64,000 nt of DNA from Coleofasciculus sp. B1-GNL1-01 (lineage in GTDB: Bacteria > Cyanobacteriota > Cyanobacteriia > Cyanobacteriales > Coleofasciculaceae), in NCBI GenBank assembly GCA_040220235.1, contig JAVJTO010000123.1. One strand, 5' to 3'. This document shows, in pieces, positions 30,803-63,304 of the stretch. Each line of letters opens with the position of its first letter. Position 1 is the stretch's first letter. The notes beneath the pieces were generated by a model that worked only from the letters and a program-made list of their open reading frames with translations, made no database searches and was not told the DNA's origin. Position numbers and translations under genes: made by a program.

Positions 30803-33499
30803 CTAAACCATTTGCCGAACCATCAACTGAGCAAATAACCCCTCCACCGCCGCCAACTCCTCAAACGTTCCCTGTTGCACGATCCGCCCCCCTTCAATAA
30901 CATAGATACGGTGAGCATGGCGAATCGTGCTGAGTCGATGGGCAATCACTAGCCGAGTCACCTGTAACTGATCCAAACTTGCACTGACAATCCCTTGAGT
31001 GCGATTATCTAACGCACTGGTCGCCTCATCAAAGAGTAAAATTCGCGGTTTCAAGACCAACGCCCTGGCTATCAATAACCGTTGCTGTTGTCCCCCCGAC
31101 AAATTCCCGCCCCCCTCACTAATTACCGTATGCATTTCCATCGGCATTGCTGCAATATCATCCGCTAACCCCGCCATCCGCGCCGCGTCCCAGGCTTCAT
31201 CCAACGTAATTTGAACCCCACTGGCAATGTTCTCAAAAATGCTCCCGGACAAAATCCGACCATTTTGCAGCACCACACCCAACTGTCGGCGCACGGCGTT
31301 AATATCTAGCCCCGATAAGGCTTGACCATCATAATCAATCGTTCCCGACTCCGGGGTTTCAAATCCCAGCAATAATCGAAACAGCGTCGATTTCCCACTC
31401 CCAGAACGCCCGACAATGGCAATAAATTCCCCAGGTTCGGCATGAATACTCAAATTATCCAGGATCAGGGGAGCATCATCCCGGTAGCGGAAGCTCACCT
31501 GATTCACCCTAATTCTACCCATCAGTTTACCAGGATCTGCCTTGCTTAAACTCACCTCAGGTCTCGTCTCGACAATCGGCTGGAGACGTTGCCATTGGGG
31601 AATCACTTGCAAAACGTCCAGCGTTGTGTTACTTAAATCCGTAACCCCTTTAATAAACGTGCCAAATGCAGTGTTGAACGCCAAAAACGTGCCAATGGAG
31701 AGTCCCACATTCCCTGGGGTTTCCGCCGCCTCCAGCCGTTGCATCGTCAACCCAAACAGTAATCCCGATGCTAGGGTAGGCATGACCGTATTGAACAGCG
31801 TCACACTATCCTTAATCTGCTGCGTACTCAGATTCAGCTTCACTTGGCGACTATAGTTGTTACTCCACGTCGCAAACGCCCGCCCTTGGGCACCGGCGAT
31901 GCGGAGTTTTGCCATACCGTTAATCAACTGCACCGTCTGTCCGAAAATTGTCCCCTGCAGGGTTAGCAGTCGATAGGTTTTACCCACCAGCAAGGAACTC
32001 GCGATGAGAGTCAAGGCAATTGCTACCACCGCCACGACAACCGCCACCCAAGCCAATGGTACACTATAGTAAAATAACAGCGCCAAATTCAGCAATGCCA
32101 ACCCAGCGCCAATAAAATGAATCACCGTCGTACCACCGAGTTGGCGGCGGATTTGACTAATGGAGGCGACACGAGACTGTAAGTTCCCCGCACTGTAGCG
32201 GCGGAAAAAATAGACCGGTAAATTCAGCAATCGCTCCCAGACAGCCGCTTGGGTAGAGGTATCAGCCACCGTTTCCACTCGCAGCAGCGCCAACCCTTGA
32301 GCAAACAGAAACAACGCCATTCCCATCGCCGCCACCAACAGTCCCGCCCCAACTTGCCATAATAAAGTGCGATCGCTATTCGGAATCGCCTGATCCATTA
32401 AAATAGCCGTAGCTTGAGGCGTCAGCATACCCAACACCGTTGCGGCTATACCGGTGCCAAGAACCATGGGCAAGTCCTGAACCCGCCCCTTTATGCTAAA
32501 CTGCAAGACATCCCACGCCGTCAGCACCTTATCCGGCAGCGTCCGATAAAACATCCAGGCAAAAGCCGTCAAGGTTGAGGCATTCCGGGCAGTTACCGCT
32601 GTACGAGTCCCCAGCACGGGGTCAAAGATATCATAGCCCGTGGCTTTCCTGGGCAACAGCACAACAAGCTGATTATCACACTGTCTGTAGGCAACTAAAG
32701 CCCCACAATCCTTTTTCCACCAATCCTCTCGCAACAACACCCGCCGCATCTGAATCCGAGAGGCTCGCATAATCGCCTCCAACGGTTCCCTCAGCCGCTG
32801 GACATCTTCCGATTGACTCCCAGGGCGGATGGGGACACCCAACGCTTTTCCCACTGCACCCGCCGCCACTAACAAGGGTGAAGGGTTCAGGGAATCGGAG
32901 GTGGCTGGGGTTGCCAAGGTTGATGCCAATTCCCCGATGGCTTGGGCATTTACCTGACGATTCAGACATTCCTCGGCTTCCAGGCGTTGCTGGTGTTCGC
33001 GGTACTCGCGTTCTTCCTGGCGCTGAATCTGGTCAAATAACTGACCATGAACCTGGGATAACGTTTCCACCAGCGCATCAGGTTTAGACGTAATTTCGGC
33101 AACTCCCTGACATCGGCTCTCGGTTTCGCGATCGCAGTATACCGTATAAACCTGTTGAAGCCAACCCGCTATCCAGTTCCTGACGTTATCATCCCCCGTG
33201 GTAATTAACTGGCGAAACCATGTCCCGTCCAATTTTAGCAGCTCGGTCTCCCCAATCGGTACAACCAACAACTGGCGAAAAGACCCAGAAGCGGTGCCAA
33301 AAAGTGCCGCGCCAGAGTCACAACTAAATAGATAACGCCGAATTCCTTCTATCACACCTTGGTTTACCTTAACGGCAAATAGGGCAACAGAACCCGACTG
33401 CACCAGCCAAACCGTCTGCGGGTCATCTAATAAGAATGGCTGATTTCCGTTAATTTTGTAAACTTGTCCCGGTAATTCTCGAATGGTTGGTGAAATCAT
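30803..33499 (-). CDS. NHLP-type bacteriocin export ABC transporter, permease/ATPase subunit
   Basis: N-terminal VWLVQSGSVALF region, peptidase-less, GRSGSGKST, LSGGQ, FDEATSALD. Confidence 0.9.
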   Translation of the reverse strand: MISPTIRELPGQVYKINGNQPFLLDDPQTVWLVQSGSVALFAVKVNQGVIEGIRRYLFSCDSGAALFGTASGSFRQLLVVPIGETELLKLDGTWFRQLITTGDDNVRNWIAGWLQQVYTVYCDRETESRCQGVAEITSKPDALVETLSQVHGQLFDQIQRQEEREYREHQQRLEAEECLNRQVNAQAIGELASTLATPATSDSLNPSPLLVAAGAVGKALGVPIRPGSQSEDVQRLREPLEAIMRASRIQMRRVLLREDWWKKDCGALVAYRQCDNQLVVLLPRKATGYDIFDPVLGTRTAVTARNASTLTAFAWMFYRTLPDKVLTAWDVLQFSIKGRVQDLPMVLGTGIAATVLGMLTPQATAILMDQAIPNSDRTLLWQVGAGLLVAAMGMALFLFAQGLALLRVETVADTSTQAAVWERLLNLPVYFFRRYSAGNLQSRVASISQIRRQLGGTTVIHFIGAGLALLNLALLFYYSVPLAWVAVVVAVVAIALTLIASSLLVGKTYRLLTLQGTIFGQTVQLINGMAKLRIAGAQGRAFATWSNNYSRQVKLNLSTQQIKDSVTLFNTVMPTLASGLLFGLTMQRLEAAETPGNVGLSIGTFLAFNTAFGTFIKGVTDLSNTTLDVLQVIPQWQRLQPIVETRPEVSLSKADPGKLMGRIRVNQVSFRYRDDAPLILDNLSIHAEPGEFIAIVGRSGSGKSTLFRLLLGFETPESGTIDYDGQALSGLDINAVRRQLGVVLQNGRILSGSIFENIASGVQITLDEAWDAARMAGLADDIAAMPMEMHTVISEGGGNLSGGQQQRLLIARALVLKPRILLFDEATSALDNRTQGIVSASLDQLQVTRLVIAHRLSTIRHAHRIYVIEGGRIVQQGTFEELAAVEGLFAQLMVRQMV

Positions 33500-33666
33500 G
33501 GGTTTTGAAGTAAATTGATTTTAAAGTTAACGGTTGAATAAATTCAAGTCATAAACTCGGCAAAAGGGGCGGGTTTAGTCGCATTTAGTTGCAACCAAAA
33601 AGATAGTTGTGAAACCCGCCCCTACAGATACATCCTGCCCAAAAAGCGTTGCGAAGGAACCCTTTA

Positions 33667-33766
33667 CAAATGACCAATGACAAATGACCAATGACAAATG
33701 ACCAATGACAAATGACCAATGACAAATGACCAATGACAAATGACCAATGACAAATGACCAATGACC
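33667..33766. repeat. STRR (CAAATGA/CCAATGA)n
   Basis: Tandem heptamers between the two ABC genes. Confidence 0.9.
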
Positions 33767-33769
33767 AAC

Positions 33770-35980
33770 TTATTGATTTTGAATCAAGGTTGAATACACA
33801 CCCTCCACCTGCCACAAATCTTGATGAGTCCCTTGTTGCACAACCTTTCCCCGTTCCAAAACAATAATTTGATCACAATCTCGAATCGTACTTAATCGGT
33901 GTGCCACAATCAAACAAGTACAGCCACGCCGCCGCAGATTCTCGTCAATCATCCGTTCCGTTTCAGCATCCAAAGCACTCGTCGCTTCATCCATAATCAA
34001 AATAGAGGGATTATTCACCAACGCTCTAGCAATTTCCAACCGCTGCCGTTGACCGCCACTTAAATTAGCCGCATTTGCGATCAATTGAGCATCATATCCT
34101 CCAGGTAGCGAGACAATCACATCATCAATAACCGCATCCTGACAAGCGCGAACAAGATTTGTTTCCGGGATTGTGGGATTCCAGAGGGTCAAATTATCCC
34201 GAACCGTGCCACCAAATAACTGAATCGTCTGCTCAACCATTGCTACAGAATGAGTGAGAACTTGATCCGGTATTTCAGTTCTAAGTTGACCATCAAAATA
34301 AATATCTCCTGACCAGGGTTGATACAGTCCACTGATCAGTTTAGCCAGAGTAGATTTTCCCGAACCACTACTACCCACCAAAGCAATGCGCTGTCCCGGT
34401 AAAACCTTGAGACTAAAGTTTTCAATCAGGGGGGGATCAACTCGGCTGTAGCCAAACGTAATCGCCTGTAACTCAACATAACCTTGTAACTTGGGATATT
34501 GACTCTTGAACTTAGCAGGTTTTGGCGCAACCTGGGGGTCAATTGGGTTACACAAAACATCATCAAGGCGAATTAAATTCCCCTCCAGTTCCTGAAGCAT
34601 ACTAGCAAAACTGACTAAATTATTCACAGGCAACAAAAAGCTCTGCATTAACCCTTGAAATGCCACCAGCATCCCTATACTCAGATATCCATCCATCACC
34701 CGCCACCCGCCAACCACTAATAAAACTAGGGACGAAAGCGCTGATAAAACGGTGGGTAATACCGAGAAAATCTGATTAGTAACATCCAATTCCTGCTGAG
34801 AATTAATCGCTTTCGTATAGTACCCCGCCCAACGAGAAAATACATCGGACTCTAAACCCGAAGCTTTAACCGTCTCAATACTTTGAAGCGCCGCAATAGA
34901 CGCCCCCGCTGCCTTACCATGCTCTTGAATTAAGCGTTGATTCGCATCTTTGCGTTTCCGGGAGACGGACTGTAAGATAAAAACATTCACCGCCGCAAAA
35001 CCAACAACAATTCCCGTCATAATTGGGTCATACTGTACCATGACTAGCCCATAAAAAATCACCATCACGGCATCAATTACCGTCGTCGTCAACCGTCCCG
35101 ACAGCACCTCCGCCACTTGGTCATTGAGACGACTACGATAAGTAATTTCTCCAGCAAATCGTTGGGCATAAAAATCAACCGGTAAGCGCAGGATATGCCA
35201 GAGAAAGCGACTGGACATTCCCACAGACAGTTTCACCTTCAGGCGGCGCAAATACCGCAAGCGTAGCTGAGTCAACAGTCCTTGCAGAATCGCTGTAATT
35301 CCTACACCAATAAGTAACGGACGCAGCCATTGTTGGCGTCCCTGAATCAAGATTTCATCAACAAAGATTTGGCTAAAGACGGGAATTGCCATGCCCACGA
35401 GGGTCAATAAAAATCCTGCCACTATGCAGTACATTAAAGCGCCCACTGTACCTTGTAGCCGTTCCCACAAGGCGAGAATTGTGCTAAATTTGCGCCCCCC
35501 TTTGACAAAATCAGAATTGGGTGTCATCACCAGGACGATACCTGTATAACTGGCATCAAATTCCGAGAAAGACACCGTTCGTGGACCTGTACCCGGGTCA
35601 TTTACGTAAACCTGTCGCTTACCAATTCCTTCTACAACTAAAAAGTGATTGAAATTCCAAAAAATAATATAAGGCGGGCGCAAATCTGGAAGGTCTTGGA
35701 TTTCCTGTTTATAGCCTTGGGCGTCGAGTCCATAGAGTCTAGCCGCTTTAAGAATATTCGCCGCTTTACTACCATCGCGAGACACACCACAGGTTTGCCG
35801 CAATTCAGGTAGGGGGACGATGCGACCATAGTAACTTAAAATAATACCCAAAGCAGCCGCACCACATTCCCCGGCTTCCATTTGCAAAAGTGTGGGCGTT
35901 TTTACCCGCCTATGGCGACGTTTTAGCCGTTTTTTAAGGGATTGAAAAGGGGTAATGAATGTCACGAATACAGTCGTCAT
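33770..35980 (-). CDS. NHLP-type bacteriocin export ABC transporter with C39 peptidase
   Basis: TPTLLQMEAGECGAAAL (catalytic Cys), WNFNHFLVVEG, NDPG; GSSGSGKST, LSGGQRQR; ATG at 35980 preferred. Confidence 0.93.
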   Translation of the reverse strand: MTTVFVTFITPFQSLKKRLKRRHRRVKTPTLLQMEAGECGAAALGIILSYYGRIVPLPELRQTCGVSRDGSKAANILKAARLYGLDAQGYKQEIQDLPDLRPPYIIFWNFNHFLVVEGIGKRQVYVNDPGTGPRTVSFSEFDASYTGIVLVMTPNSDFVKGGRKFSTILALWERLQGTVGALMYCIVAGFLLTLVGMAIPVFSQIFVDEILIQGRQQWLRPLLIGVGITAILQGLLTQLRLRYLRRLKVKLSVGMSSRFLWHILRLPVDFYAQRFAGEITYRSRLNDQVAEVLSGRLTTTVIDAVMVIFYGLVMVQYDPIMTGIVVGFAAVNVFILQSVSRKRKDANQRLIQEHGKAAGASIAALQSIETVKASGLESDVFSRWAGYYTKAINSQQELDVTNQIFSVLPTVLSALSSLVLLVVGGWRVMDGYLSIGMLVAFQGLMQSFLLPVNNLVSFASMLQELEGNLIRLDDVLCNPIDPQVAPKPAKFKSQYPKLQGYVELQAITFGYSRVDPPLIENFSLKVLPGQRIALVGSSGSGKSTLAKLISGLYQPWSGDIYFDGQLRTEIPDQVLTHSVAMVEQTIQLFGGTVRDNLTLWNPTIPETNLVRACQDAVIDDVIVSLPGGYDAQLIANAANLSGGQRQRLEIARALVNNPSILIMDEATSALDAETERMIDENLRRRGCTCLIVAHRLSTIRDCDQIIVLERGKVVQQGTHQDLWQVEGVYSTLIQNQ

Positions 35981-36055
35981 GATTCCAATTTTATAGGCTA
36001 CCAGTCTCACCCTGGGTTATCGAATCGGTTGCCAGATGGATAACTCATCACTGGG

Positions 36056-36174
36056 CTTTAATTAAAACAATAAGCCAATAAATTTTTCGATGCAGTCCCA
36101 GTTTCTGCCAAGGTTATGGTAAGAAGGGGACAGATTAATTACACAATCCGGTGATTGCCCTTACCGAAAACTGC
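36056..36174 (-). promoter_or_regulatory. Conserved operator/promoter of the peptide-exporter ABC genes
   Basis: TTACCGAAAACTGC at 36161 and CTTTAATTAAAAC at 36056; same 105-bp offset as the copies at 41203-41321 and 46691-46809. Confidence 0.8.
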
Positions 36175-36405
36175 CACCCTCGTTTACGTCGGGATTATGT
36201 CACCTTTGTCATGGTGTGGCACAGTAACAGTAAGATTCCCATCAGGGCGGGTTTTGTTGAGAGGTTATCGGTCAATATCAACATTAAATGGCTAAACCCG
36301 CCCCTACAATTGACCTCATACCCTCATCCCCTCTTATCCCCCTACTGGCTTGATACAGCTAAGATTGTGGAATAGATTTCACCATTGAATCGGGCGCACG
36401 TCGGT

Positions 36406-36732: not shown

Positions 36733-38178
36733 TTAATAAATGCCACTACTCGACCTAAGAATCGGTAGAATAAACGTAATTGGCGCTCGTTCTTCTATCG
36801 TCACGCGAACGGTGGTGGTGGTTCCCGAAGAGATGTTGAGTTCAGGTCCTTTAGAAGATGACCATTTGTAACCACTAAATGTTGTAGAATCAGGATGGAG
36901 GTCAGCGACAACTTGCATCAGTCCTGCTGGCTGATTGGATACCAAATCGGCGACGATTTCTGGATTACCGACAACCTTCGCGGCGGCGGCTTGGGTGATG
37001 GGAAAGGTGGAAATATCTTTAACGGTACCGACGATACCGCCAAAGCGTTCCCGCTTCACGGTTTGGGGTGTGATTTGTAGCGTCATACCGGGTTTAATTT
37101 TTTTGCCGTCGCCAACGGAGAAATAGGTAATTCCCACCATTTCGCTGTCGGGATGTGCCGCGTCTAGGGTTGCCAAACGGGTTCCAGGGTTGACCACTTG
37201 TCCAGGATTAACCGCGAGTTCGACAATGCGTCCGCTGTGGGGGCTGATAATTTGGCTATTCTCATTTAATTGTACTTCCAGTTGGGCAATGTCGCGCTGA
37301 ACCGCTTGAATTTCTTTCTGGCGCAGGGTGACGGCTTCTAAGTCTTCTTGGGCGAGATTGGCTTGGCGACTCTCGAGGGCTTGGAGTTGCGATCGCAAGT
37401 TAGTAATAGTACTTAGGTTATCACGATAGGCTTTTTCTTGCTCGGTTGCTGTAACATCGAGTTCTGTTAACTGGGTTTGGAGTTTAGAGATGGTATCCTG
37501 GTTCTCTTGAACTTGCACTTGAGCATCCAGCAGAACATCATGAGTAATCACTCGTTCGGCAAAAAGTTGCTGACGGATGTCTAATCTCTGTTGATAAATA
37601 GGAGTCATCCCCTGAACTTGCTGTAAGCTTTGTTGCAGGCTTTGGCGTTGTTGTTTCAGAGATTCATTACTGGTAGTTTTAAGTAATGGGGTTAAGGATT
37701 GGAGTTCCTGAATCCGTTGCTGGAGGTATTGGCGTTGCTGTTGAATCGAGTGTTTTTCCTGTTCAATTCGCAGGGCTTGCAGTGAACTAACGGCTTGGTT
37801 TTGGGACTGGAGTTGGGCGAGTTTAGTTCGTTGCTGTTGGAGTTGTTTTTGGAGTTCAGTTTGGTTAATAGTTCCCAGAATTTGACCTTTTTTAACGGTA
37901 TCTCCTACTTCGACAGTTAAATCGGATAATTGCCCGGAATTTTTGGATTGAAGTGGGACAACGTTGCTAGGGTAAACCAAGACACCGCGCCCTTCAATCG
38001 TGATGGGAATGCGTCCGTAAATACTCCAGAATCCCGCAGCGGCGACTAAAGAGGTTAAGGAGAGTAAAGGAAGCCAACTTTTGGGGTTGACGACTTCCAT
38101 AAGTTGGTCTAGCCGTTCGGGAGAGGATAAACGTTCTAGAGATTTTTCTCGAAATAGAGTTTGTTTTTGAGTTAGCAT
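36733..38178 (-). CDS. NHLP bacteriocin system secretion protein (HlyD-type membrane fusion protein)
   Basis: LFREKSLERLSSPERLDQLM N-terminus, TM, long coiled coil, YKWSSSKGP. Confidence 0.92.
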   Translation of the reverse strand: MLTQKQTLFREKSLERLSSPERLDQLMEVVNPKSWLPLLSLTSLVAAAGFWSIYGRIPITIEGRGVLVYPSNVVPLQSKNSGQLSDLTVEVGDTVKKGQILGTINQTELQKQLQQQRTKLAQLQSQNQAVSSLQALRIEQEKHSIQQQRQYLQQRIQELQSLTPLLKTTSNESLKQQRQSLQQSLQQVQGMTPIYQQRLDIRQQLFAERVITHDVLLDAQVQVQENQDTISKLQTQLTELDVTATEQEKAYRDNLSTITNLRSQLQALESRQANLAQEDLEAVTLRQKEIQAVQRDIAQLEVQLNENSQIISPHSGRIVELAVNPGQVVNPGTRLATLDAAHPDSEMVGITYFSVGDGKKIKPGMTLQITPQTVKRERFGGIVGTVKDISTFPITQAAAAKVVGNPEIVADLVSNQPAGLMQVVADLHPDSTTFSGYKWSSSKGPELNISSGTTTTVRVTIEERAPITFILPILRSSSGIY

Positions 38179-38302: not shown

Positions 38303-38539
38303 TCAGAACAGCGTATAAGGGTATTTACTGAACTGCGGTTTTGCAATATACCATCCACCAGATACGGTTTCCAACTGTTCATCGGATAGTTCTTCCGCCC
38401 CAAGGCTAGCCGTCAAATTTTGGGTAGATTTCATGGCTTGGACTTCATCTAAGTTTTTTCCTCCCGTTGTTAATGACAACGATTGTGGCTGAGTTTTAGA
38501 TTCAGACATCTTGGCAAAAAATGGATTGATGTTAGGCAT
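38303..38539 (-). CDS. Double-glycine leader peptide precursor 1; core WYIAKPQFSKYPYTLF
   Basis: ELSDEQLETVSGG cleavage motif; RBS CGGAG; adjacent to a C39 exporter. Confidence 0.85.
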   Translation of the reverse strand: MPNINPFFAKMSESKTQPQSLSLTTGGKNLDEVQAMKSTQNLTASLGAEELSDEQLETVSGGWYIAKPQFSKYPYTLF

Positions 38540-39023: not shown

Positions 39024-39242
39024 TTACCAAAAGGCAATCCAATAAGGATAAGATGAACCACCAGCTATAGTTTTCAACTGTTCATCAGATAGTTCTTCCG
39101 CCCCAAGGCTAGCTGTCAAATTTTGGGTAGATTTCATGGCTTGGATTTCATCTAAGCTTTTTCCTCCCATTGTTAATGACAACGACTGTTGCTGAGTTTG
39201 AGATTCAGACATCTTGGCAGAAAATGGATTGATGTTAGACAT
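39024..39242 (-). CDS. Double-glycine leader peptide precursor 2; core SSYPYWIAFW
   Basis: ELSDEQLKTIAGG; leader nearly identical to precursor 1. Confidence 0.85.
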   Translation of the reverse strand: MSNINPFSAKMSESQTQQQSLSLTMGGKSLDEIQAMKSTQNLTASLGAEELSDEQLKTIAGGSSYPYWIAFW

Positions 39243-39519: not shown

Positions 39520-39678
39520 TCACTTGTACCACCAGAAAAATAGACCCCCGGCAACAGTCTCCAATTGTTGGTCGGATAACTCTTTTGCTTTTTCCTCTTG
39601 GATAGGTCGGGCAAAGACTGTTGTTTTGGAGCCCGTAATGGCGACTTTATTGGTCAAAAATTGATTGATGTTAGACAT
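39520..39678 (-). CDS. Double-glycine leader peptide precursor 3; core LFFWWYK
   Basis: Start MSNINQF (cf. MSNINPF, MPNINPF), ELSDQQLETVAGG; RBS GAGG. Confidence 0.8.
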   Translation of the reverse strand: MSNINQFLTNKVAITGSKTTVFARPIQEEKAKELSDQQLETVAGGLFFWWYK

Positions 39679-39988
39679 GATATTTTTCCTCTTGTAGTTT
39701 GGCATCGAGCATTTGGGAACTTAAAGCTATCTTGGGTTTTGAAAAGATAATCTTTTCATTTTTGCTTTAATTCTGCTCTATTAATAATCTTAAGGGTTAT
39801 AAGTACAGGTTTAATAGGACAAAATTTAGCTAATTAATTTAGACAAATACCTGTTATATGTAAGGTTTTGACAAAGTAAAATACCCAACTTTTTATAGAA
39901 GTTAGGCATTTAAGAGTAATGCAGATATAAGTTGATTTTTTAGTATCTCAACAGATCAAGAAATCAAGTTGTTGATTAAAGTCCATGA

Positions 39989-41202: not shown

Positions 41203-41321
41203 CTTTAATTAATACGATAAGGAAACTAACTTAAGGATGCATTCCCTGTTTGTGCCAAGGTGATGGTAGAAACTGGACAAGTCAATGGCATAATACTGTC
41301 ACCACCGTTGCCGAAAACTGC
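41203..41321 (-). promoter_or_regulatory. Conserved operator/promoter of the PEP-CTERM protease
   Basis: CTTTAATTAATAC at 41203; TGGCATAATACTGT at 41286; TTGCCGAAAACTGC at 41308. Confidence 0.8.
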
Positions 41322-41442
41322 AAACCCTACACTTGAGGAGAGCAATCAGGATTTTCTGCATCTGAACTGTGGCACTATTGATTGGGTTTCGGCGCGTCAA
41401 CTCAACCTACGATTTCACGCAAGTTAGTTAAACTGTTATCAA

Positions 41443-41658: not shown

Positions 41659-41896
41659 ATTACCACCTAAACCTGAAATGAGCAGATGCTGGATTTTAGA
41701 AACAATTTTTATGTTATGTCCACTTGATTTATACTCTACAAAAACAAAAAAATGATGTACTTGTATTTTCGGTAAACTCTATGACTGAAATCAGATTATT
41801 CAGTTACATAAAGTGATAACTAGCTTGGCAGAAAAGTATAAGTAGCGACCAAGATGGTCGCACGACAAGGGTGTCGCAATTATTGACAATCCGGTT

Positions 41897-46392: not shown

Positions 46393-46653
46393 TCATCGAG
46401 ATGATGCGCGACTTTGAACCCCTTGTTTTGGTTTAGGGTTGAAGGGTAAAGGCGTGGGTTTTAAGCCCCAGACAGGGCTGATATAAGAAATGCTGCGATA
46501 CTTAAGTTGTCGAAATCCTGCCACGGAAAGGGCGTTTTTCAGGATAGATTTGTGCCAAGGCTTCCCTCGATAATTGCCAATTGTTGCGGATTCAGTGCTA
46601 GGAATTGCAGTGGGATTTTTCTGGTAAGGAACGCCACGATAACAGAGTTGCAT
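46393..46653 (-). CDS. DUF4278-like small protein
   Basis: MQLCYRGVPY...GNYRG...LKYR repeated YRG motif; RBS CAGGAG. Confidence 0.8.
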   Translation of the reverse strand: MQLCYRGVPYQKNPTAIPSTESATIGNYRGKPWHKSILKNALSVAGFRQLKYRSISYISPVWGLKPTPLPFNPKPKQGVQSRASSR

Positions 46654-54745: not shown

Positions 54746-54803
54746 TTGCCGAATTCTGACAAGTGGGTTGCACAATTCAGCCAGGGGTATTGCCGAAAAC
54801 TGC
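54746..54803 (-). promoter_or_regulatory. 22-bp-phased operator array upstream of the large FHA gene, divergent from the CHAT gene
   Basis: TTGCCGAATTCTGA (54746), TTGCACAATTCAGC (54768), TTGCCGAAAACTGC (54790). Confidence 0.75.
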
Positions 54804-55142
54804 ATGGCGACAGGAAGACACCTGTTCCAGTTGTTGTCGGAAATGTCTGGAACAATCGGGAAGGGTATCTATCGATAACCTCTCGACAAAAGCCGCCCTG
54901 GGTTATTCAAGGGGTTTTTGTAGCTTGTGTTACTGTTTTGCTCTTTCTCGTTTCCAGCATCCCTCTAGGAAATGCTCTTGAAGAGTGGTTATTATTAAGA
55001 GGCGAAGTCTCCCTGAGCTCATTCCCTTCTCAAAACTGGGAATGAAGTAAACGAGGCAAAAAGCAAGTGTTAGTAACAAAAATTAATTTAATTGGAGAAC
55101 AAGCGGAAACCGATTAGAATTACAGTTAATCCGACGGTCACT

Positions 55143-55779: not shown

Positions 55780-58404
55780 ATGAAAAGCCAACACCGCCGA
55801 TTCCGAATTCGCCCCTTTCTCCTGATTCTATTCCTGTGTAGTCTCACTTTCAGTTTGAGTCTAAGTCAGGTTTCCTTAACCCTTACCCCCCTCAAACTTA
55901 GCCCCATCGCCACCGCCCAAACACTGAATCCCGATCAACTCGTGGAACAAGGTATCCAACGCTACAAAAACGGTGATATTTACGACGCCATCGAACCTTG
56001 GCAAACCGCCTTAACCCACTACCAAGACACCAACAAAAGAGCCAGCGCCGCCATAGTTCAAGAAAACCTCGCCCGCGCCTATCAACACCTCAAGCAAAGC
56101 GAAAAAGCCCTCACCTATTGGGAAAATGCGATCGCCTATTATCGCCAAATCGCTGATACCCCCCAAGTAGCAAGGCTTCTCGTCGAAAAGGCACAAACCT
56201 ATACTAATATAGGACAACCCAGAACCGCGATCGCACTCTTATGTAATCCCTCCCCGAACGACTGTACCCCCGATAGCGCCCTCGCCCTTGCCCGTACCAC
56301 CCAAGACAAACCCACCGAAGCCGCCGCCTTGGGAAGTTTAGGTGAAGCCTTGCGGCTGCGAGGCGACTACAAAAGCGCCCTCACCCATCTGCAAGCCAGC
56401 TTAGATTTGGCAACAGAAATGGGTAATATCGCCTATCAAACCTCAACCCTAACTCATCTAGGCAATACCTACCTTAGCCTTGCCAACATCCATTATCGCC
56501 GCGCCAACTCTGCAACCATTCGCGGCGATACCATCGAAGCCGATAAACTCAAAAAACAAGCATTAACCTACGACACCGAAGCCCTCACCGTCTTTCAAAC
56601 CAGCCTCAACCTCGCCCAAACCCACAACGATCGCCTAGGACAACTGAGATCGCTCCTCAATACCATTACTCCAGAATACCGCACCCAGTCTACCCGCCAC
56701 GCCCTCAAACAAGCCCTCTCCCTCCTAGAAACCTTACCCGATTCCCGTGATCAAGTCTATGGGGCGATTGACTTAGCCCACTTCCTCAGTCAAGGAAACA
56801 CAAAGGCGACAACCCAATGTGTCACCCCAGAATCCCCCAGCCAAACCCTACACCTCCTGCAACAAGCCGTCGCCATCGCCCAACGCCTCCAAGACAATCG
56901 CGCCCAATCCTTTGCCCTAGGGGAACTCGGTCATTTCTACGAATGTCAGCAAGACTACTCCCAAGCCCTCAACTTCACCCAACAAGCCCGATTAGCCGCC
57001 GACCAAGACCTGCTAGCTAAAGATAGCCTCTATCTGTGGGAATGGCAAGCCGCACGCCTGTATAATGCCCAAGGAAACCCAACTCAGGCGATTGACACAT
57101 ACAACCGCGCGATCGCAACCTTAGAAAGTATCCGAGGTGATATTCTCCTCGCCAATCGCGACATCCAATTCGACTTTCGTGATACCGTTGACCCCCTTTA
57201 CCGACAACTCATCGAACTCAGATTAGAACGCGCCTCCCTCTCCTCAACTCCAACGTCTGAGAAAACCAAAACCCTCACCTCTGTTCTCAACACCGTTGAC
57301 TCCCTCAAATTAGCCGAACTTCAAGACTATTTTGGCGGCGATTGTGTCTTAACCGCCTTCAACCAAGAACGAGTAGATTTAGTCGGAGAAAACACCGCCA
57401 CTGCCGTCTTTAGTTCCATCATTTTACCAGACCGCACCGCAATTATCGCCAGTTTTCCCAACGGTGAAAAACGACTCACCTGGATAAACATTGACCGCGA
57501 AACCCTCAGACAAGAAATCAACACCTTCCGTCGCGGACTCGAAAGCTTTTTTAGAACCTATAACCCCCAACCCGCCCAGAAACTTTACGACTGGATTATT
57601 CGCCCCTTCGCCGCCGATTTAGACCAAGCCAACATCAAAACCTTAGTCTTCATTCAAGATGGTATCCTACGCAGTATCCCCATGGCAGCCCTCCACGATG
57701 GCGAGAACTTTCTAGTGCAAAAGTATGCCATTGCTACCACACCAACCTTAACCCTAACTGACCCCAAAACCCTCAACCGCGAAGACCTGCTAGCATTAGC
57801 TTTAGGATTAACCCAACCCGCGATTATCGAGGGTCGCGAATTTCCCCCTTTACCGAATGTTTCCTGGGAAATTAATCAGGTCAAAACCCTACTCCCTGGA
57901 AGCCAAGGATTACTGGATGAAGACTTCACCTCAACTCGCCTACAACAGGAATTAAACCAAACCGTTTACCCCATTCTTCATATTGCCACCCACGGCGAAT
58001 TTGGTGGTGATCCAGAAAACACATTTATTGTCACAGGAAACAATGAAAAACTCACGATTACTGAGTTGGATAGAAAGCTACGGACGGTTTCAAAACGTTC
58101 TGACCCCGTAGAACTCCTCACCTTAACCGCTTGCCAAACCGCTGCTGGAGATGACCGCGCCGCCTTGGGTTTAGCGGGTGTCGCGGTGCAAGCGGGTGCT
58201 AGAAGTGCTTTAGCTTCCCTTTGGTTTATTGATGATGCTACAACTGCCCAAATTGCCACGGATTTTTATGCTAATTTACGCGATTCTAGGATTAGTAAAG
58301 CCGAAGCACTTCGCATGGCTCAAGCCTCATTAATTGAAGCCGGAGGAAAAACCGCTCACCCCGCTTATTGGGCAGCATTTATTATGATTGGTAATTGGTT
58401 GTAA
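55780..58404 (+). CDS. Signal peptide - TPR - CHAT (caspase-HetF-like) protease
   Basis: N-terminal hydrophobic segment, TPRs, ILHIATHGEF and LTLTACQTA dyad, ASLWFIDD, HPAYWAAF. Confidence 0.92.
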   Translation: MKSQHRRFRIRPFLLILFLCSLTFSLSLSQVSLTLTPLKLSPIATAQTLNPDQLVEQGIQRYKNGDIYDAIEPWQTALTHYQDTNKRASAAIVQENLARAYQHLKQSEKALTYWENAIAYYRQIADTPQVARLLVEKAQTYTNIGQPRTAIALLCNPSPNDCTPDSALALARTTQDKPTEAAALGSLGEALRLRGDYKSALTHLQASLDLATEMGNIAYQTSTLTHLGNTYLSLANIHYRRANSATIRGDTIEADKLKKQALTYDTEALTVFQTSLNLAQTHNDRLGQLRSLLNTITPEYRTQSTRHALKQALSLLETLPDSRDQVYGAIDLAHFLSQGNTKATTQCVTPESPSQTLHLLQQAVAIAQRLQDNRAQSFALGELGHFYECQQDYSQALNFTQQARLAADQDLLAKDSLYLWEWQAARLYNAQGNPTQAIDTYNRAIATLESIRGDILLANRDIQFDFRDTVDPLYRQLIELRLERASLSSTPTSEKTKTLTSVLNTVDSLKLAELQDYFGGDCVLTAFNQERVDLVGENTATAVFSSIILPDRTAIIASFPNGEKRLTWINIDRETLRQEINTFRRGLESFFRTYNPQPAQKLYDWIIRPFAADLDQANIKTLVFIQDGILRSIPMAALHDGENFLVQKYAIATTPTLTLTDPKTLNREDLLALALGLTQPAIIEGREFPPLPNVSWEINQVKTLLPGSQGLLDEDFTSTRLQQELNQTVYPILHIATHGEFGGDPENTFIVTGNNEKLTITELDRKLRTVSKRSDPVELLTLTACQTAAGDDRAALGLAGVAVQAGARSALASLWFIDDATTAQIATDFYANLRDSRISKAEALRMAQASLIEAGGKTAHPAYWAAFIMIGNWL

Positions 58405-58474: not shown

Positions 58475-59269
58475 TCACCTATCTAATACCTCAACAATTT
58501 GTGTCAATCGCTGACCCTGTTCACTGCCATTTTCTGCTGCTTGTAAGTTTTCTAACTCAGCTAAATCCTTGAGTAAATCTTCAAGTAAAATACTTGCCTC
58601 ATTTCCTGATGCTAAAACTTCCGCTAATGCATCATACCATAACCCTGCCTCTGCATATCGCTTCGCTCTTTCTAGGGGATCAAGACTATCAGAAAATGTC
58701 CCTGGCGTCTGGACAACATCAATATCCGCCCCCGCTACTAAAGCGCTAGAGGGGGAGTTGGGGTTACACAGAAGCACAACTCTCCAACCATATCTTTGTC
58801 CAATTGATAAACCCGGTTTATCCTTTGGTAACGATAATGTCATGATTCCCGGAGAACTTTGTAGCGGAATTTCCTGGATTACGTTACGACTCCCATTTGA
58901 CCCATATTCATAGAGTTGAAAGATTATCTCATAAGATTGAGTATCCGGGACAAACCAAGCGAAGGTAGGGTGAGTGGAAGCCGTTTGTCCCACATGGCTT
59001 TGAGGGGCGAGGGCTGTTAAACTAATTTTTGCATCACCCGTACAACCGCCTCGTCTACCTTCTGAACCATCGCCAAAGGGCGACAGCAAATCATCAGGAG
59101 GTTGGTATAGTCTTGTTCCCGTTGAACCTGTATGAGCTGGATCAGGTGCGCCCTCTCCGTTTTTATCATCAGCTAAAGCGACACCACCTATTACCAAAGA
59201 TAAACTGAGAACAGCACCGATTACGAGTTTACCATTAAATTGTTTTGTTAGCCGCCATAAAAGTTGCAT
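58475..59269 (-). CDS. DUF928 domain-containing exported protein
   Basis: Signal peptide; RRGGC..LTALAP..T..HPTFAWFVP; YAEAGLWYDAL. Confidence 0.85.
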   Translation of the reverse strand: MQLLWRLTKQFNGKLVIGAVLSLSLVIGGVALADDKNGEGAPDPAHTGSTGTRLYQPPDDLLSPFGDGSEGRRGGCTGDAKISLTALAPQSHVGQTASTHPTFAWFVPDTQSYEIIFQLYEYGSNGSRNVIQEIPLQSSPGIMTLSLPKDKPGLSIGQRYGWRVVLLCNPNSPSSALVAGADIDVVQTPGTFSDSLDPLERAKRYAEAGLWYDALAEVLASGNEASILLEDLLKDLAELENLQAAENGSEQGQRLTQIVEVLDR

Positions 59270-59290
59270 AATTGTCTTAGTTATTTAACG

Positions 59291-59408
59291 CTTTATTTAC
59301 AGCCTACAACCCAGGACTTGTGCATCTGATGCCTATAAGTGTAAACCTAATGACAGAATTGGGATGGTTTGCTCACAAGTTCCCGTTATTGTCCTGGCTG
59401 AAAACTAC
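59291..59408 (-). promoter_or_regulatory. Degenerate copy of the operator array upstream of DUF928
   Basis: CTTTATTTAC at 59291; TGACAGAATTGGGA at 59351; TGGCTGAAAACTAC at 59395 (44 bp from 59351). Confidence 0.55.
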
Positions 59409-59763
59409 ATAGCCTGTCCTGTCCTAAAGATTACCCAAAATTGCAATTCTTTAAACCCTATTGTTTCAGGCATTTTTTTCAGAGTGTTTGACCGGACAGG
59501 ATAAGCTACACGGCTGTTTCAGACGTAGCAGGCTACGTCTAAAACAACGTTACCCCAATCTAGGATAATCTTATCGATAAAAGTTCAGGAAATGTTCAGG
59601 AAAGTTCAGGAAAGTTCAGGAAAAGTTGACAGCTAATATTAAGTTGCGTTAAATAAATAGGGCTAAAACCTTTATCAATGACCTTTTTTAAATTATTTTG
59701 ACGAATAACCCTCAACAGGTTATGTATCTTTGTTGAAACTCAAAGGGTATGACTTCCTCAACA

Positions 59764-61668
59764 TTACCAGAACCACGCTTTTGCCACAGACCAAGTTAAT
59801 TCACAAACGGTTCCTTTGGGAGAATTAGGAAACCGCCGAAACGTTCCTCGCAGTTGTCGAGCCAGATTTTTTGCCTGCTGCGTTCCCCGACCTCGATATT
59901 GATCTAAGTTATCAGATAATGCGTCTAAACCTACCCCATTATCGATAATGCGAATAACATTCTTACCGTTTTCTTGAGTACAAATTACACTCAGACGAGT
60001 CACCCCAACAGCGTATTTCCCTACATTACACAACGCCTCTTCTAGAAATCGACACAACCCCCGCTTTTGGTCGAGGCTTAGATATCGACTTTCTAGAGGT
60101 TCAAATTTATTAATTTGAAGTTTAATGGTTTTAAAGCAAGGAAAATCACGAGTTATCGTATTATCGTAAACTTGATAGAGTATTTCATGAATTGGCGTCT
60201 GTAAATCTAATTCTAAATTACCGCCCAGATAAATATGTTCCCCTTGGGTTAACGTTTCTCGACGAACGGATTCATAGACTGTGCGAATCTCTTGGTTCAA
60301 CTGTTTAAGTTCAGACAACAACAGTTCAGAATATAAATGGTTTTCTTGAGCCGTGCTTAAAATCCTTGCCAGTCTTTGCAACGGTCCATTGTGGATGGTA
60401 TCAAATGTATGGTCAATAATAAATTGCCGCTCTTGCAGCCGTAACCGCAAATCCTGTTGATGTCGATAAAATAACCCAGCGGTGAGTCCAGCACCATTAA
60501 AAACAAGAGGAAGAATTGCCGGAATAAGGGGAATCCACCACCCTAAAATCAACCCGAAATAACAAATACCGATTAATCCCACACTAGCCATCCCCAATCC
60601 CATCAGAATCTTGAAAGGGGATTGAAATAGCCGACCCAGACTAATACCTAAAAACCCCCAGGCAAAAATCCACAAATATTCCCATCCATCTGACCAAACC
60701 TGCAAAAGGGGACGCCCATCCAGAACAGCACTAATAATTTGACTCACCGCATGAGCTTGAATTTCCGCCCCATAAACCAGTTTGGGGTTAACACCCGTAA
60801 TCGCCGCCGAATTTACGATATCCTTGACACTAGCAGCCGTTATCCCAACTAAGACAATGCGATCGCGAATCCAGTTGGGATCAACATGTCCACTTTTGAT
60901 ATCATTAAGTGAGATCACTCTAAACGGTTCTCGACCACCGCGAAAATTGAGCAAAATCTGATTTCCGCCAGCATCGGCTCTCACATATCCCCCAGAATTG
61001 GGTTGAAACCGAGTCAGTTCAGTGGAACCAAACCGGATAGCATTGGGGTCATGAATTCCCTGTTCTAGGGGAATTCCTTGACTAGATAAATAGGTTTGAG
61101 CCAGACGTAGCGTCAGAGACAATTTACGCTCTCCCTGGGGAGTAGAAATGCGAAGCAGGCTGCGTCTGAGATACCCATCTCTATCCAGAACCGCATCAGC
61201 AAATCCAGCTTGATCAGGGGGCAAATCGGGTGGTGGACTAACAGTAAACCCCTCGCGATCGCGCAACGCTTTCTCAATCGCAATTAAGTTTTTGCTCTCT
61301 CTAAATACTTCAACCAATTTAGCATGACCGGGCTCAACGGGTAAGTCTCTAAAGATATCAAGACCAATGACATTCGGCTGATAATTCTGCAATAGTCTCA
61401 GGAGTTCAGCAATATCTTGATCAGGAATAGGATACGTTCCTATCTGCTGGATATCTCCTTCATCAATCCCAACAATCACAATTCGTTCATCCATAGGTTC
61501 AGCTGGACGCAGCCGCAGAAAATTATCCAGCACCACCCATTCCAAAAATTGTAGCGAACCCGTCAGACGAGCCAGCATGACCAGTCCAATAATAATCAAT
61601 CCTGGCAAAGCCCCAACCCGCCAGATGGCAAGTTCCGCTTGAATGTTTCGCCAAAGGTTACGCTGCAC
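59764..61668 (-). CDS. CHASE2-domain sensor histidine kinase (HisKA_3-like)
   Basis: RIVIVGIDE, IGLDIFRD, GAEIQAHAVSQI; three TMs; H-box TIHNGPLQ; EEALCNVGKYA, IIDNGVG, GRGTQQA. Confidence 0.9.
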   Translation of the reverse strand: MQRNLWRNIQAELAIWRVGALPGLIIIGLVMLARLTGSLQFLEWVVLDNFLRLRPAEPMDERIVIVGIDEGDIQQIGTYPIPDQDIAELLRLLQNYQPNVIGLDIFRDLPVEPGHAKLVEVFRESKNLIAIEKALRDREGFTVSPPPDLPPDQAGFADAVLDRDGYLRRSLLRISTPQGERKLSLTLRLAQTYLSSQGIPLEQGIHDPNAIRFGSTELTRFQPNSGGYVRADAGGNQILLNFRGGREPFRVISLNDIKSGHVDPNWIRDRIVLVGITAASVKDIVNSAAITGVNPKLVYGAEIQAHAVSQIISAVLDGRPLLQVWSDGWEYLWIFAWGFLGISLGRLFQSPFKILMGLGMASVGLIGICYFGLILGWWIPLIPAILPLVFNGAGLTAGLFYRHQQDLRLRLQERQFIIDHTFDTIHNGPLQRLARILSTAQENHLYSELLLSELKQLNQEIRTVYESVRRETLTQGEHIYLGGNLELDLQTPIHEILYQVYDNTITRDFPCFKTIKLQINKFEPLESRYLSLDQKRGLCRFLEEALCNVGKYAVGVTRLSVICTQENGKNVIRIIDNGVGLDALSDNLDQYRGRGTQQAKNLARQLRGTFRRFPNSPKGTVCELTWSVAKAWFW

Positions 61669-61764: not shown

Positions 61765-62448
61765 CTAATCAATTAAACCCTCCTCCTTAGCACGCATTTG
61801 GGTTTGAATCCGAATATTTTTCCCCGGTTCCGGATAAACGCCCAAAGCGTCTTGAACCTTCGTCCAATAATGACGCACAGTTCGTTCAGCAATATTCATC
61901 TGCTGAGCGATCGCTTTATCTTGTAATCCTTCTTGAAAGGCGAGGGTCAACAGTTCCAACCATTCCGGCTTAACTTCCAACCCCGTTCGCATCTCTCTGG
62001 GCGTGTAAACCACTCCCTGAAGCGCCCAATCAACCTTAGTTAACATTTCCTGGAGGGGCAGACTTTTGTCTACAATCGTAAAACCCCCTTCATGAGTCGA
62101 GATCGCAGGTTTGAGACGCACCAGTGAGCGGACATGAGCGCTTTGAACTACAATATTCAAGGTGGGATACTGCTCCATCAACGTTCTCACCAGTTGAATC
62201 CCTGTCTCCGTTCGCGCCATGTCTCCAGGTTGCTCTGGAATAGAAAGATCCAGAATCGCCAAATCAGGTTGAGCGCCCTCCACTTGTTGTTGAGCGCCTC
62301 GTGCGGTTTGAGCGGTGATCACATCGGCTTCTGGGTACTGCTTTGTCAGCATATTCACAGTTCCATCCAAGACAGCTTCGTGATCATCAACCACGAGAAT
62401 TTTTGACTTGACTAGCTTTGGTGATTTTAGACTCATATTCAAATCCAT
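61765..62448 (-). CDS. NarL/LuxR-type DNA-binding response regulator
   Basis: ILVVDDH, LAILDLSIP, C-terminal GLQDKAIAQQMNIAERTVRHY HTH; start may be 62436. Confidence 0.92.
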   Translation of the reverse strand: MDLNMSLKSPKLVKSKILVVDDHEAVLDGTVNMLTKQYPEADVITAQTARGAQQQVEGAQPDLAILDLSIPEQPGDMARTETGIQLVRTLMEQYPTLNIVVQSAHVRSLVRLKPAISTHEGGFTIVDKSLPLQEMLTKVDWALQGVVYTPREMRTGLEVKPEWLELLTLAFQEGLQDKAIAQQMNIAERTVRHYWTKVQDALGVYPEPGKNIRIQTQMRAKEEGLID

Positions 62449-63304
62449 CGCAGTCTAGGGTTAATTTTGGGAGCTGAGGTTGGGGTGATTGCCAACGGAA
62501 GTGCCACGTTACCATCAACTCCTTTCTCTTATAAAAGCACTGTCCGCCGGTGACAAAGTGAAAAGCTTCCTTAAGATAGTCCAAATCTTTGAGACTTGAT
62601 GGACAGACCACTGTTGATTCATTAGGATAAGAGAGTTGAACTCTAATATCACCGAACTTCCCCTGTTTCTGTAAGCGGACATGAATCGATAGTTGAGTGA
62701 ACACCTCTGAGGGAAGCATACCAATTTTTTCAGTCTGGCATTGTTGAAACCCTCTGAGTACGCCTTTGGTGTCGGTGTCGTTGCTCCAACGGGATGTACC
62801 TCCTTGAGATAACGTAATTCGCAGTAACTCATCTAAGGCGATTAAAATCACTCGAGAGCACTCAGGAGACTCATCCTGCCAATCCCCCGGCAGTTCCATC
62901 TGAATGTTAAGGTGAGGATTGTAAGTTTGCCACAGTTCGAGCAAGTACTGTACAGCTAGGGGTAAACTTTCCTCAACAAAAGGAGGCGATAGGCGATCGC
63001 TCAATTGTCCCAGAGAATGATGGAACTTTTCAATCCCCTTTAACCAGTCTCGGACATGCTCCAAAGAAATCTCATGACTATCTCCCAGCCATAACTCTAA
63101 GCTGCGACGCATCGCCAATGACTCTTGCAACAACCCATTACGAATTCGCTCAGTTTCGCAATACAGTTGAAACCCTCGCCTGCGTTCCCACCATCGCAAA
63201 GCTCGTCGCGCCCTAGAGTAGGATAGGAATAGTCCCACACAGATGAGTACACCAGCAATCGAAACTACGCTCTCTAAAACAATAAAATAGGAAACATTAA
63301 CCAT
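62387..63304 (-). CDS. Membrane-anchored degenerate histidine-kinase-like protein (pseudokinase)
   Basis: N-terminal TM; RIRNGLLQ aligns with the H-box TIHNGPLQ but lacks His; LSP..ESLPLAVQYLL and LIALDELL resemble HisKA_3/HATPase. Confidence 0.65.
   Translation of the reverse strand: MVNVSYFIVLESVVSIAGVLICVGLFLSYSRARRALRWWERRRGFQLYCETERIRNGLLQESLAMRRSLELWLGDSHEISLEHVRDWLKGIEKFHHSLGQLSDRLSPPFVEESLPLAVQYLLELWQTYNPHLNIQMELPGDWQDESPECSRVILIALDELLRITLSQGGTSRWSNDTDTKGVLRGFQQCQTEKIGMLPSEVFTQLSIHVRLQKQGKFGDIRVQLSYPNESTVVCPSSLKDLDYLKEAFHFVTGGQCFYKRKELMVTWHFRWQSPQPQLPKLTLDCDGFEYESKITKASQVKNSRG

Follow-up and report, generated by a model that had tools for sequence, protein, structure and literature searches.

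Gene content of the locus

We analysed a stretch of 64,000 nt (hereafter the window) that corresponds to positions 9809-73808 of contig C123 in the 8.66-Mb genome of Coleofasciculus sp. B1-GNL1-01. It encodes a CHASE2-type two-component system with a membrane-anchored pseudokinase, exported DUF928 and TPR-CHAT proteins, adhesins of the two-partner secretion (TPS) type resembling filamentous hemagglutinin (FHA), a surface protease, and an NHLP-type exporter with three short double-glycine (GG) peptide precursors; copies of one tandem operator precede several of these transcription units (Table 1). The first-pass annotation had read positions 30803-63304 as a candidate peptide-pheromone circuit in which the exported peptides, sensed through CHASE2, trigger adhesin production. 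Results of our comparative analyses in silico suggest that the locus is probably a surface-colonisation regulon under autoregulation, with secreted cargo that can be swapped, in which the GG peptides would be outputs and not the trigger.

Gene calls were checked against Pfam and NCBIfam cut-offs, and the Pfam scan covered 27 of the 57 window open reading frames (ORFs) of at least 90 aa, most of the others overlapping longer genes. The gene inventory given earlier was borne out: the three-gene exporter passed all three TIGR cut-offs, three GG precursors are present, the surface-anchored protease is a trypsin-fold PEP-CTERM protein, the domains of the CHASE2 kinase and response regulator were confirmed, and Pfam recovered the exported DUF928 and TPR-CHAT proteins, two TpsA adhesins and one TpsB/FhaC transporter.

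Table 1. Genes and operator sites of the window
Feature	Position	Strand	Remarks
Membrane-anchored HisKA_3-like pseudokinase	62387..63304	-	one predicted transmembrane helix; Arg replaces phospho-His
NarL/GerE-type response regulator (receiver-GerE)	61765..62448	-	phospho-Asp intact; likely operator binder
CHASE2 sensor histidine kinase (CHASE2-HATPase)	59764..61668	-	H-box His intact
Exported DUF928 protein	58475..59269	-	Ig-like sandwich followed by helical tail; R-G-G-C motif conserved
Exported TPR-CHAT caspase-like protease	55780..58404	+	His/Cys dyad intact; without operator in this genome
TpsA-2 (FHA-like, 2340 aa)	47364..54386	-	profile match
DUF4278 small protein	46393..46653	-	overlooked in the first-pass annotation
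AraC helix-turn-helix protein with receiver-domain remnant (first residues only)	45762..46220	-	in 1/80 regulator loci
HEAT-repeat/NACHT protein	42110..45718	-	Pfam
71-aa ORF	41443-41658		weak single box upstream
Trypsin-fold PEP-CTERM surface protease	39989..41125	-	catalytic triad intact in sequence
GG precursor 3	39520..39705	-	core LFFWWYK
GG precursor 2	39024..39242	-	core SSYPYWIAFW
GG precursor 1	38303..38539	-	core WYIAKPQFSKYPYTLF
NHLP-type membrane-fusion protein (MFP)	36733..38178	-	TIGR03794
C39 peptidase ATP-binding cassette (ABC) transporter	33770..36010	-	TIGR03796
Second ABC subunit (peptidase-less)	30803..33499	-	TIGR03797
57-aa conserved membrane protein	29848..30021	-	no Pfam or NCBIfam family
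Rotamase (SurA/PpiC-like)	29083..29805	-	profile match
TpsA-1 (1574 aa)	23617..28341	-	no operator found
TpsB/FhaC	20946..22685	-	no operator found
Caspase gene pair	17054-20539 and 9820-16938		single box upstream at 20763..20779
Operator 1 (tandem boxes)	63659..63697	-	393 nt before pseudokinase-regulator-CHASE2 kinase operon
Operator 2	54767..54805	-	before TpsA-2
Operator 3	46773..46811	-	before DUF4278-AraC-HEAT/NACHT
Operator 4	41285..41323	-	before protease
Operator 5	36138..36176	-	before C39 transporter; conserved in G587
Operator 6	30137..30175	-	before 57-aa membrane protein and rotamase; beyond the span of the first-pass annotation
Weak operator	59372..59410	-	before DUF928
Weak single box	41825..41841	-	before 71-aa ORF
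Single box	20763..20779	-	before caspase pair

A tandem operator before several units of the window

The operator consists of two 16-bp near-palindromes spaced 22 bp apart, TTGCAG-TTTT-CGGCAA and a weaker copy. Six strong minus-strand sites fit TGCAGTTTTCGGCAA-N13-ATTGTGYCA and lie 154-419 nt before genes, placing predicted boxes ahead of the regulator operon itself, TpsA-2, the PEP-CTERM protease, the C39 exporter, the DUF4278/AraC genes and the rotamase unit. In leave-one-out scans no other genome position reached any of the six held-out sites (32-45 bits vs. a maximum of 26-30 bits), and a matrix trained on 53 distant sites ranked five window sites first to fifth genome-wide. Before the caspase pair the box of the window is weak, but its counterpart at the same place in a second Coleofasciculus genome, G454 (L173:4715), is a consensus match, and the pair may belong to the regulon.

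In this genome no site was found directly before the precursors, the MFP, CHAT, TpsA-1 or FhaC. With six strong and three weak sites, the earlier statement that most of the genes carry the same operator is therefore only partly right, applying to transcription units and if read-through is assumed; read-through from operator 4 via the protease into the precursors and the MFP appears possible. Scans for generic promoters and terminators stayed at chance (35 vs. 29.1 and 27 vs. 21.4). Eight mat metatranscriptome runs contain 28-36% of the sequence words of positions 36000-41700; because contigs from four runs span genes and intergenic DNA alike, and contigs of 57-109 kb occur in the runs, DNA carry-over in these data is possible.

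Distribution of the box and its likely binder

The closest relatives of the regulator (96-99%) come from Coleofasciculus, a mat-forming filamentous cyanobacterium. We used two samples: 80 loci around regulator relatives, many of them on short contigs so that linkage counts are lower bounds, and 250 genomes of the same order, in which the regulator is present in 66 and missing from 184. Outside the window the first box is a near-palindrome, TTGCA(C/G)-TTTT-C(T/G)GCAA. Among the non-Coleofasciculus loci, 72 of 76 had enough flank for a search in either orientation with up to two mismatches and up to 500 nt upstream; the box lies upstream of the pseudokinase/regulator operon in 50 of these 72, whereas in 50 shuffles the mean was 0.76 and the highest count 3. 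The exact 15-mer box occurs in 22/66 regulator-positive and 2/184 regulator-negative genomes, so 22 of the 24 genomes with the exact box carry this NarL-type regulator; a reversed control pattern gave two matches.

The sites have a regular layout. Most of those found in the loci (153/169) are intergenic, the second box peaks at +21/22, and a TANNNT element peaks at +60/61 in 40/153 sites and at +55 in 10/153. This arrangement would be expected of an activator that places two dimers on one helical face. When the full two-box pattern was searched with zero mismatches, one of 400 other genomes matched; it is the individual box that is conserved. At L142:8233 (G585:C44:213233) the operator of the pseudokinase promoter recurs exactly, as an orphan without an adjoining regulator module.

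As the box is restricted to loci and genomes with the regulator, as a paralogous copy of the regulator on contig C44 of the Coleofasciculus sp. B1-GNL1-01 genome is boxed too, and as the AraC gene occurs in 1/80 regulator loci, the box probably serves as the site to which the NarL-type regulator of the module binds. The AraC protein was rejected as the cognate factor on that same count. Since one and the same operator, which accompanies the regulator between genomes, precedes the exporter, the protease, one adhesin and the two-component operon, the predicted regulator-to-exporter coupling, regulator-to-adhesin coupling and autoregulation are well founded. In the literature searched, which covered few subscription papers, we found no description of the operator, and none of the matches listed for the box sequences was relevant or contained a 15- or 16-mer. 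The operator itself is a firm result, and through it an orphan signalling module of wide occurrence is connected with adhesins and exchangeable secreted cargo.

The two-component module and its linked partners

Catalytic and receiver residues of the core module are well kept. The phospho-Asp of the regulator is conserved in 80/80 homologues, and its closest solved relative is DevR/DosR (E 3e-12). The H-box His of the kinase is present in 61/61 aligned sequences, with conserved N and G boxes. Together with the palindrome upstream of its own operon, these features fit an autoregulated two-component system of the NarL type. The pseudokinase, upstream of the regulator in 67/80 loci, has Arg at the phospho-His position in 58/63 aligned homologues; it is HisKA_3-like by Atlas language-model features and weakly so by hhalign against the kinase (probability 33%, E 4.5e-4). 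A BLASTP comparison of these two proteins gave no match, nor did a PDB sequence search with the pseudokinase profile. The model of the CHASE2 sensor has a predicted local distance difference test score (pLDDT) of 90, and its fold yields no clue to a ligand, since a Foldseek search of the PDB returned no match.

Counts in the 80 regulator loci were 69 for CHASE2, 67 for the pseudokinase, 50 for DUF928, 35 for CHAT, 30 for TpsA, 16 for FhaC and 1 for the NHLP MFP. The genome has 24 CHASE2 and 26 DUF928 matches; 17 of the 26 DUF928 genes lie within 10 kb of a CHASE2 gene, and none within 10 kb of the exporter. A paralogous module at C44:116132-133850 of this genome comprises regulator, CHASE2, DUF928, CHAT, TpsA and FhaC genes, lacks pseudokinase and exporter, and carries variant boxes before a 709-aa gene. 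In G454 (L171:3161-4818, contig C105) the CHASE2 kinase gene seems frameshifted near its start and DUF928 is shortened.

The DUF928 model (pLDDT 84) has its best fold match in MtxA (PDB 4Z29; Z 9.1, 142 residues aligned, root-mean-square deviation 4.0, 13% identity), the next best reaching Z 6.7; the match covers model residues 50-231, with a Foldseek E value of 1.7e-4. The His/Cys dyad of the CHAT protein is kept in 35/35 homologues. TPS-domain exoproteins together with a POTRA/ShlB transporter identify the adhesin genes as a two-partner (type Vb) secretion system, and both TpsA proteins share a nearly identical conserved C-terminal domain with no Pfam toxin match. Contact-dependent inhibition of the CdiA/CdiI type was rejected on account of these conserved C-termini. 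In another genome (L150, G559:C19) four TpsA genes form a tandem array, two of them with identical upstream boxes, and at positions 8142-9553 of the window a truncated TpsA (207 aa, TPS domain only) adjoins a DUF4277 transposase-like fragment.

Peptide precursors, exporter and surface protease

The three adjacent exporter genes exceed their cut-offs (TIGR03794 454/156, TIGR03796 1160/853 and TIGR03797 989/709 bits), and the C39 catalytic Cys and His motifs are present at residues 43 and 121. A TolC-type channel gene lies outside the window; one full-length OEP gene was found on contig C84. All three precursor genes sit between the protease and MFP genes. Precursors 1 and 2 are tandem duplicates including their upstream region (89% over 300 nt), and a decayed MFP gene start at positions 38780-38880, between the two, is a trace of tandem duplication.

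The precursor leaders stay below the NHLP and Nif11 cut-offs (17.7 vs. 50.9 bits for TIGR03793, 13.2 vs. 32.3 for TIGR03798) and share with those families a generic GG motif only. The precursor family comprises 18 clusters with a genus-specific 62-aa leader, and all its named members are from Coleofasciculus. Leaders have a mean identity of 81% and cores a median of 6%. Among 19 proteins (P0001-P0018, P0020) we counted 16 distinct cores of 7-19 aa, with 30% aromatic, 13% basic and 1% acidic residues and no Cys; the core WGILWIAYH is common to four clusters. The last residue is F or W in 12 of the 16 cores; such ends recall the C-terminal signals of outer-membrane proteins or PDZ ligands. These precursors define a new family of GG peptides that are genus-specific, very short and hypervariable. 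Short aromatic cores also adjoin other NHLP exporters (L105, L131, L125), and many NHLP exporters (L088-L095, L104, L124, L125) are preceded by a conserved HAMP-cNMP protein, a DUF7005 protein and further genes.

Among the 27 ORFs covered by the Pfam scan there was, in agreement with the first-pass annotation, no enzyme that would modify ribosomally synthesised and post-translationally modified peptides (RiPPs), the rotamase aside, and the search for modifying enzymes gave no SPASM match. With no linked modifying enzyme and no Cys in the 16 cores, the peptides do not have the marks of modified RiPPs. Other contigs carry three LanC-like and three YcaO genes, and Ser/Thr residues of the peptides may be modified in trans by enzymes encoded on other contigs. 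In the PEP-CTERM protease, Thr stands six residues before the catalytic Ser, where we presume the Asp of the trypsin S1 pocket (chymotrypsin numbering) to have been replaced. The protease gene is also found without peptides (L121 and L122).

Exchange of secreted cargo between relatives

Around the 153 intergenic boxes the most frequent neighbouring genes are the pseudokinase (55), DUF928 (16), TpsA (10), FhaC (6) and CHAT (4); RTX, subtilase, PEP-CTERM, LysM-GH19 and TPR proteins are boxed as well. Between relatives the cargo under the box is exchanged and the sensor is near-invariant. In G587 the protease, the exporter and two precursors are retained, next to an additional boxed halogenase-polyketide synthase-nonribosomal peptide synthetase (PKS-NRPS) cluster; in G588 the protease is followed by a boxed halogenase; and in G586 a polyketide cluster follows the 71-aa ORF, and subtilase-RTX and LysM-GH19 genes are boxed. 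In the same region, the flavin-dependent halogenase-PKS-NRPS cluster has a DevBCA-like exporter (L138/L137, G587:C28; L121, G588:C467), and in G586 (L134, C58:56952-68732) a cluster resembling a polyunsaturated fatty acid synthase stands in place of the protease, peptides and exporter of the window.

Boxes also precede the NHLP MFP in G589 and G591, and a boxed unit leads to an MFP in G002. At L057 boxed precursors are divergent from the pseudokinase, in G521 a different C39 exporter is boxed, and in G011 a GG-like ORF. Other genera have a boxed exporter too (L124, L125, L104, L057), with GG exporters or precursors also at L155 and L161. A box was found in 6 of 33 NHLP loci, a count from which L117 is absent as it lies outside the matrix scan and in which several contigs end close upstream. 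A metagenome scan for precursor loci yielded four short contigs, none with a box before the precursors. The predicted output arm is supported, as the box is found in several genera ahead of adhesin, surface-protein and GG-peptide exporter genes.

Peptide alleles compared with the sensor

A cognate pheromone is expected to be obligately linked to its receptor and to co-vary with it, as ComC does with ComD. Four congeners have an orthologous regulator (G585, with a paralogous regulator of 55% only, was left out), and TIGR03796 is above cut-off in one of them, G587. The cleanest exporter-less congener is G586, which is 100% complete and has a long contig through the locus. Among the 66 regulator-positive genomes, 38 have no NHLP MFP match, and the box does not track the MFP (10/22 boxed genomes vs. 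18/44 others).

The sensor domain of the window is matched at 276/284 residues in G587, which has different cores, and at 275/284 in G586, which has no exporter; the cytoplasmic part of the kinase is equally conserved (229/235 and 225/235). The sensor P0030 is 279/284 identical and bears the same strain name as P0008 and P0010, both with unrelated cores. Across intact alleles 275-280 of 284 sensor residues are identical while the cores differ. The feedback arm from peptide to CHASE2 is not supported, because the exporter occurs in one of four congeners and the sensor is constant against hypervariable cores. Of the circuit first proposed, the operator common to exporter, protease, one adhesin and two-component operon stands, and the part that made the peptides the CHASE2 ligand is not supported.

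Comparison with known systems

Like ComABCDE and BlpABCRH, the locus combines short unmodified GG peptides with a C39 ABC exporter whose gene follows a repeated operator, and with a kinase/regulator operon subject to autoregulation; a GG precursor with a peptidase exporter is present, and exporter and kinase operon both lie under a predicted operator (36138-36176 and 63659-63697). Those systems have a LytTR regulator, a membrane-embedded peptide-sensing kinase and pherotypes. Here, in contrast, the regulator is of NarL/GerE type, a periplasmic CHASE2 domain sits on a HisKA_3-like kinase, the operator is two tandem palindromes, and peptide and receptor show neither obligate linkage nor covariation. 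As sensor and peptide do not co-vary, the exporter is missing from most congeners and the regulator is not LytTR, the ComABCDE/Blp logic invoked in the first-pass annotation is a functional likeness at best; in its working the system resembles a colonisation regulon of the autoregulated NarL type, and it falls outside the ComABCDE class. NarL regulons of the DosR/DevR type share with it, besides the related regulator structure, a HisKA_3-like kinase and tandem palindromes with autoregulation, and differ in box sequence, sensor and targets.

For the peptide genes, the nearest precedent is the set of cyanobacterial bacteriocin clusters with a three-gene NHLP cassette (Wang et al. 2011, PMC3140520). 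As described in the parts of that paper drawn on here, these have a C39 transporter, a peptidase-less ABC subunit, an HlyD-type protein, GG precursors and a rotamase, whereas the present family has a genus-specific 62-aa leader instead of NHLP/Nif11 leaders, and very short aromatic cores without Cys. The terms "response regulator" and "hemagglutinin" have no occurrence in PMC3140520. PteB and EbfG1-4 of Synechococcus elongatus (PMC4997328, PMC12267927) are by description also C39-exported GG peptides in a biofilm context, and EbfG1-3 are cited as amyloid-forming in a passage of PMC12267927. The transporter there is of another subtype, control is by a secreted inhibitor, and no CHASE2 system figures in the passages concerned.

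Two further systems bear on CHASE2. According to passages of PMC5192318, the Burkholderia BiofilmReg operon encodes a regulator, an exported LysM-FecR protein and a CHASE2 kinase, and disruption of the regulator abolished biofilm; both systems thus pair a regulator and a CHASE2 kinase with a small exported protein. In contrast to the present module, the BiofilmReg regulator is of the CreB/OmpR type and FecR-LysM replaces DUF928, and TPS, CHAT, a pseudokinase and a known operator do not appear in those passages. The same passages give the factors recognised by CHASE2 as not known as of 2016. In magnetotactic bacteria mtxA is followed by a CHASE2 cyclase gene, as stated in a passage of PMC4439547, and DUF928 shares the Ig-plus-helical fold of MtxA (PDB 4Z29); the mtx output is a cyclase and not a kinase/regulator pair, and at 13% identity the likeness is one of fold and gene order. 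In the literature searched we found no description of a CHASE2, DUF928 and CHAT combination, nothing relevant on CHASE2 with cyanobacterial double-glycine peptides, hemagglutinin or response regulators, nothing on a cyanobacterial TpsB, CHAT domain and CHASE2 combination, and nothing relevant on DUF928 beyond a paper on WD40 proteins. Judged by titles and the first part of abstracts, none of the matches listed describes a cyanobacterial peptide-pheromone loop.

Proposed mechanism and alternative explanations

In the reading we consider probable, a surface-colonisation regulon with exchangeable cargo, two regulator dimers would occupy boxes spaced by 22 bp, the second of which would fall at or close to -35, and activate transcription; autoregulation would add positive feedback. 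The input likely comes through the DUF928/CHAT/TpsA module and would arise in the periplasm from these always-linked parts. TPR-CHAT would read the state of the TpsA filament, whose C-terminal domain is conserved, and bind or cleave DUF928, which would dock on CHASE2, and the His-less pseudokinase may tune the kinase or act on the regulator. We infer this periplasmic relay from the DUF928-CHASE2 linkage, the MtxA-like fold and the Burkholderia CHASE2 kinase with an exported partner. The peptides would cross both membranes and act on neighbours, likely as strain-variable competition effectors, with an EbfG-like matrix role as our second choice. If so, the operator gives a direct read-out for a module present in 66/250 sampled genomes of the order, and a box-driven reporter could be used in screens for the CHASE2 signal and in epistasis analysis of the order in which DUF928, CHAT, TpsA and the pseudokinase act. 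This reading predicts a surface-colonisation regulon in a major mat-building genus and, since halogenase-PKS-NRPS clusters and peptide exporters lie under the box, a route to switch on silent natural-product clusters.

Several points weigh against it. The pattern behind the count of 50 in 72 loci was widened after matches there had been seen, so that this search was not blind, and the matrix from 53 distant sites was trained on sites chosen by the widened pattern and is not fully independent of the window; significance of the co-occurrence counts is overstated, as kin genomes are not independent. Repression via the box, instead of activation, is possible. The DUF928/CHAT relay is deduced from gene linkage and a modelled fold, and no immunity gene for the peptides was recognised. 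In G591 a box lies directly before GG precursors. Of the three congeners without the exporter, two carry little weight, G588 being in 1440 contigs and G454 having the apparently frameshifted CHASE2 gene. The co-occurrence of exporter and CHASE2 module, put forward earlier as a check, exceeds chance: the NHLP MFP is present in 28/66 regulator-positive vs. 41/184 regulator-negative genomes, and 10/19 other NHLP loci have CHASE2, DUF928, TpsA or CHAT within about 20 kb (L104, chosen earlier for its regulator link, was excluded), with 19% of random 20-kb windows of this genome for comparison. Such co-occurrence fits repeated recruitment as cargo and leaves room for some signalling role.

The pheromone loop, in which exported cores would return to the periplasm, bind this CHASE2 and induce the regulon in the manner of ComABCDE/Blp while the PEP-CTERM protease clears them, appears unlikely. 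The cores are short, unmodified and aromatic GG peptides, the exporter and the kinase operon lie under a common operator, other genera also have GG exporters or precursors behind a box, and a protease without the S1 Asp might, from its sequence, cut after aromatic residues. Yet the sensor is constant across strains with unrelated cores or no exporter, the NHLP MFP lies within 10 kb in one of the 80 regulator loci, the window precursors have no direct box, each strain has two or three unrelated cores for one sensor, and the protease exists apart from the peptides. An MFP/TolC route would moreover skip the periplasm, so that peptides of 1-2 kDa would have to re-cross the outer membrane. Of about equally low probability is that the peptides signal to other receivers, whether other CHASE2 proteins, an intracellular regulator after uptake or receptors of neighbours (kin recognition or jamming). 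The many CHASE2 and DUF928 genes, often close together, would provide candidates, and some alleles are shared despite hypervariable cores, with F or W at most ends; no receptor is linked to the peptides or seen to co-vary with them. We give about the same low weight to the peptides being structural matrix parts like EbfG1-4 that aid the adhesins in mat building. Their co-regulation with TpsA and PEP-CTERM proteins would suit this role, and in composition the cores, aromatic and rich in Pro/Tyr, are similar to the EbfG1 peptide as presented in part of PMC4997328. Fast core replacement under a conserved leader, however, suits conflict better than structure, the cores are a mere 7-19 aa long, and the exporter is of the NHLP type, whose Anabaena cluster is, in a passage of PMC12267927, not significantly homologous to the S. 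elongatus system.

It is very improbable that some other protein, either the AraC of the locus or a global regulator, binds the box and has the two-component operon as just one target. A 22-bp repeat spacing also suits AraC-type proteins, the exact box occurs in two regulator-negative genomes, and G586 has a boxed gene for a complete receiver-AraC protein (L136:10724-11596); against this, AraC is rare at regulator loci and the box is limited to regulator loci and genomes, whereas a global regulator would leave sites genome-wide. We also hold as a bolder and rather doubtful idea, though one we rate above any of these alternatives, a strain-identity circuit in which a CHASE2/DUF928/CHAT/TpsA contact relay fires the regulon and the exported peptides agonise or jam that relay, or a paralogous CHASE2, in self or neighbours. 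If true, it would amount to cyanobacterial peptide quorum or kin sensing, undescribed in the literature searched, and to the first ligand class for CHASE2.

Further features of the window

The 57-aa membrane protein is boxed here and in G586, G587 and G521. Of the two proteins encoded in tandem at positions 9820-20539, one is caspase(C14)-lipase-like and the other is of the caspase-nSTAND1-WD40-periplasmic-binding type. Repeats include four of 150-bp period before CHAT (55143-55769) and two heptamer-type tandem arrays (2174-2331 and 33659-33768).

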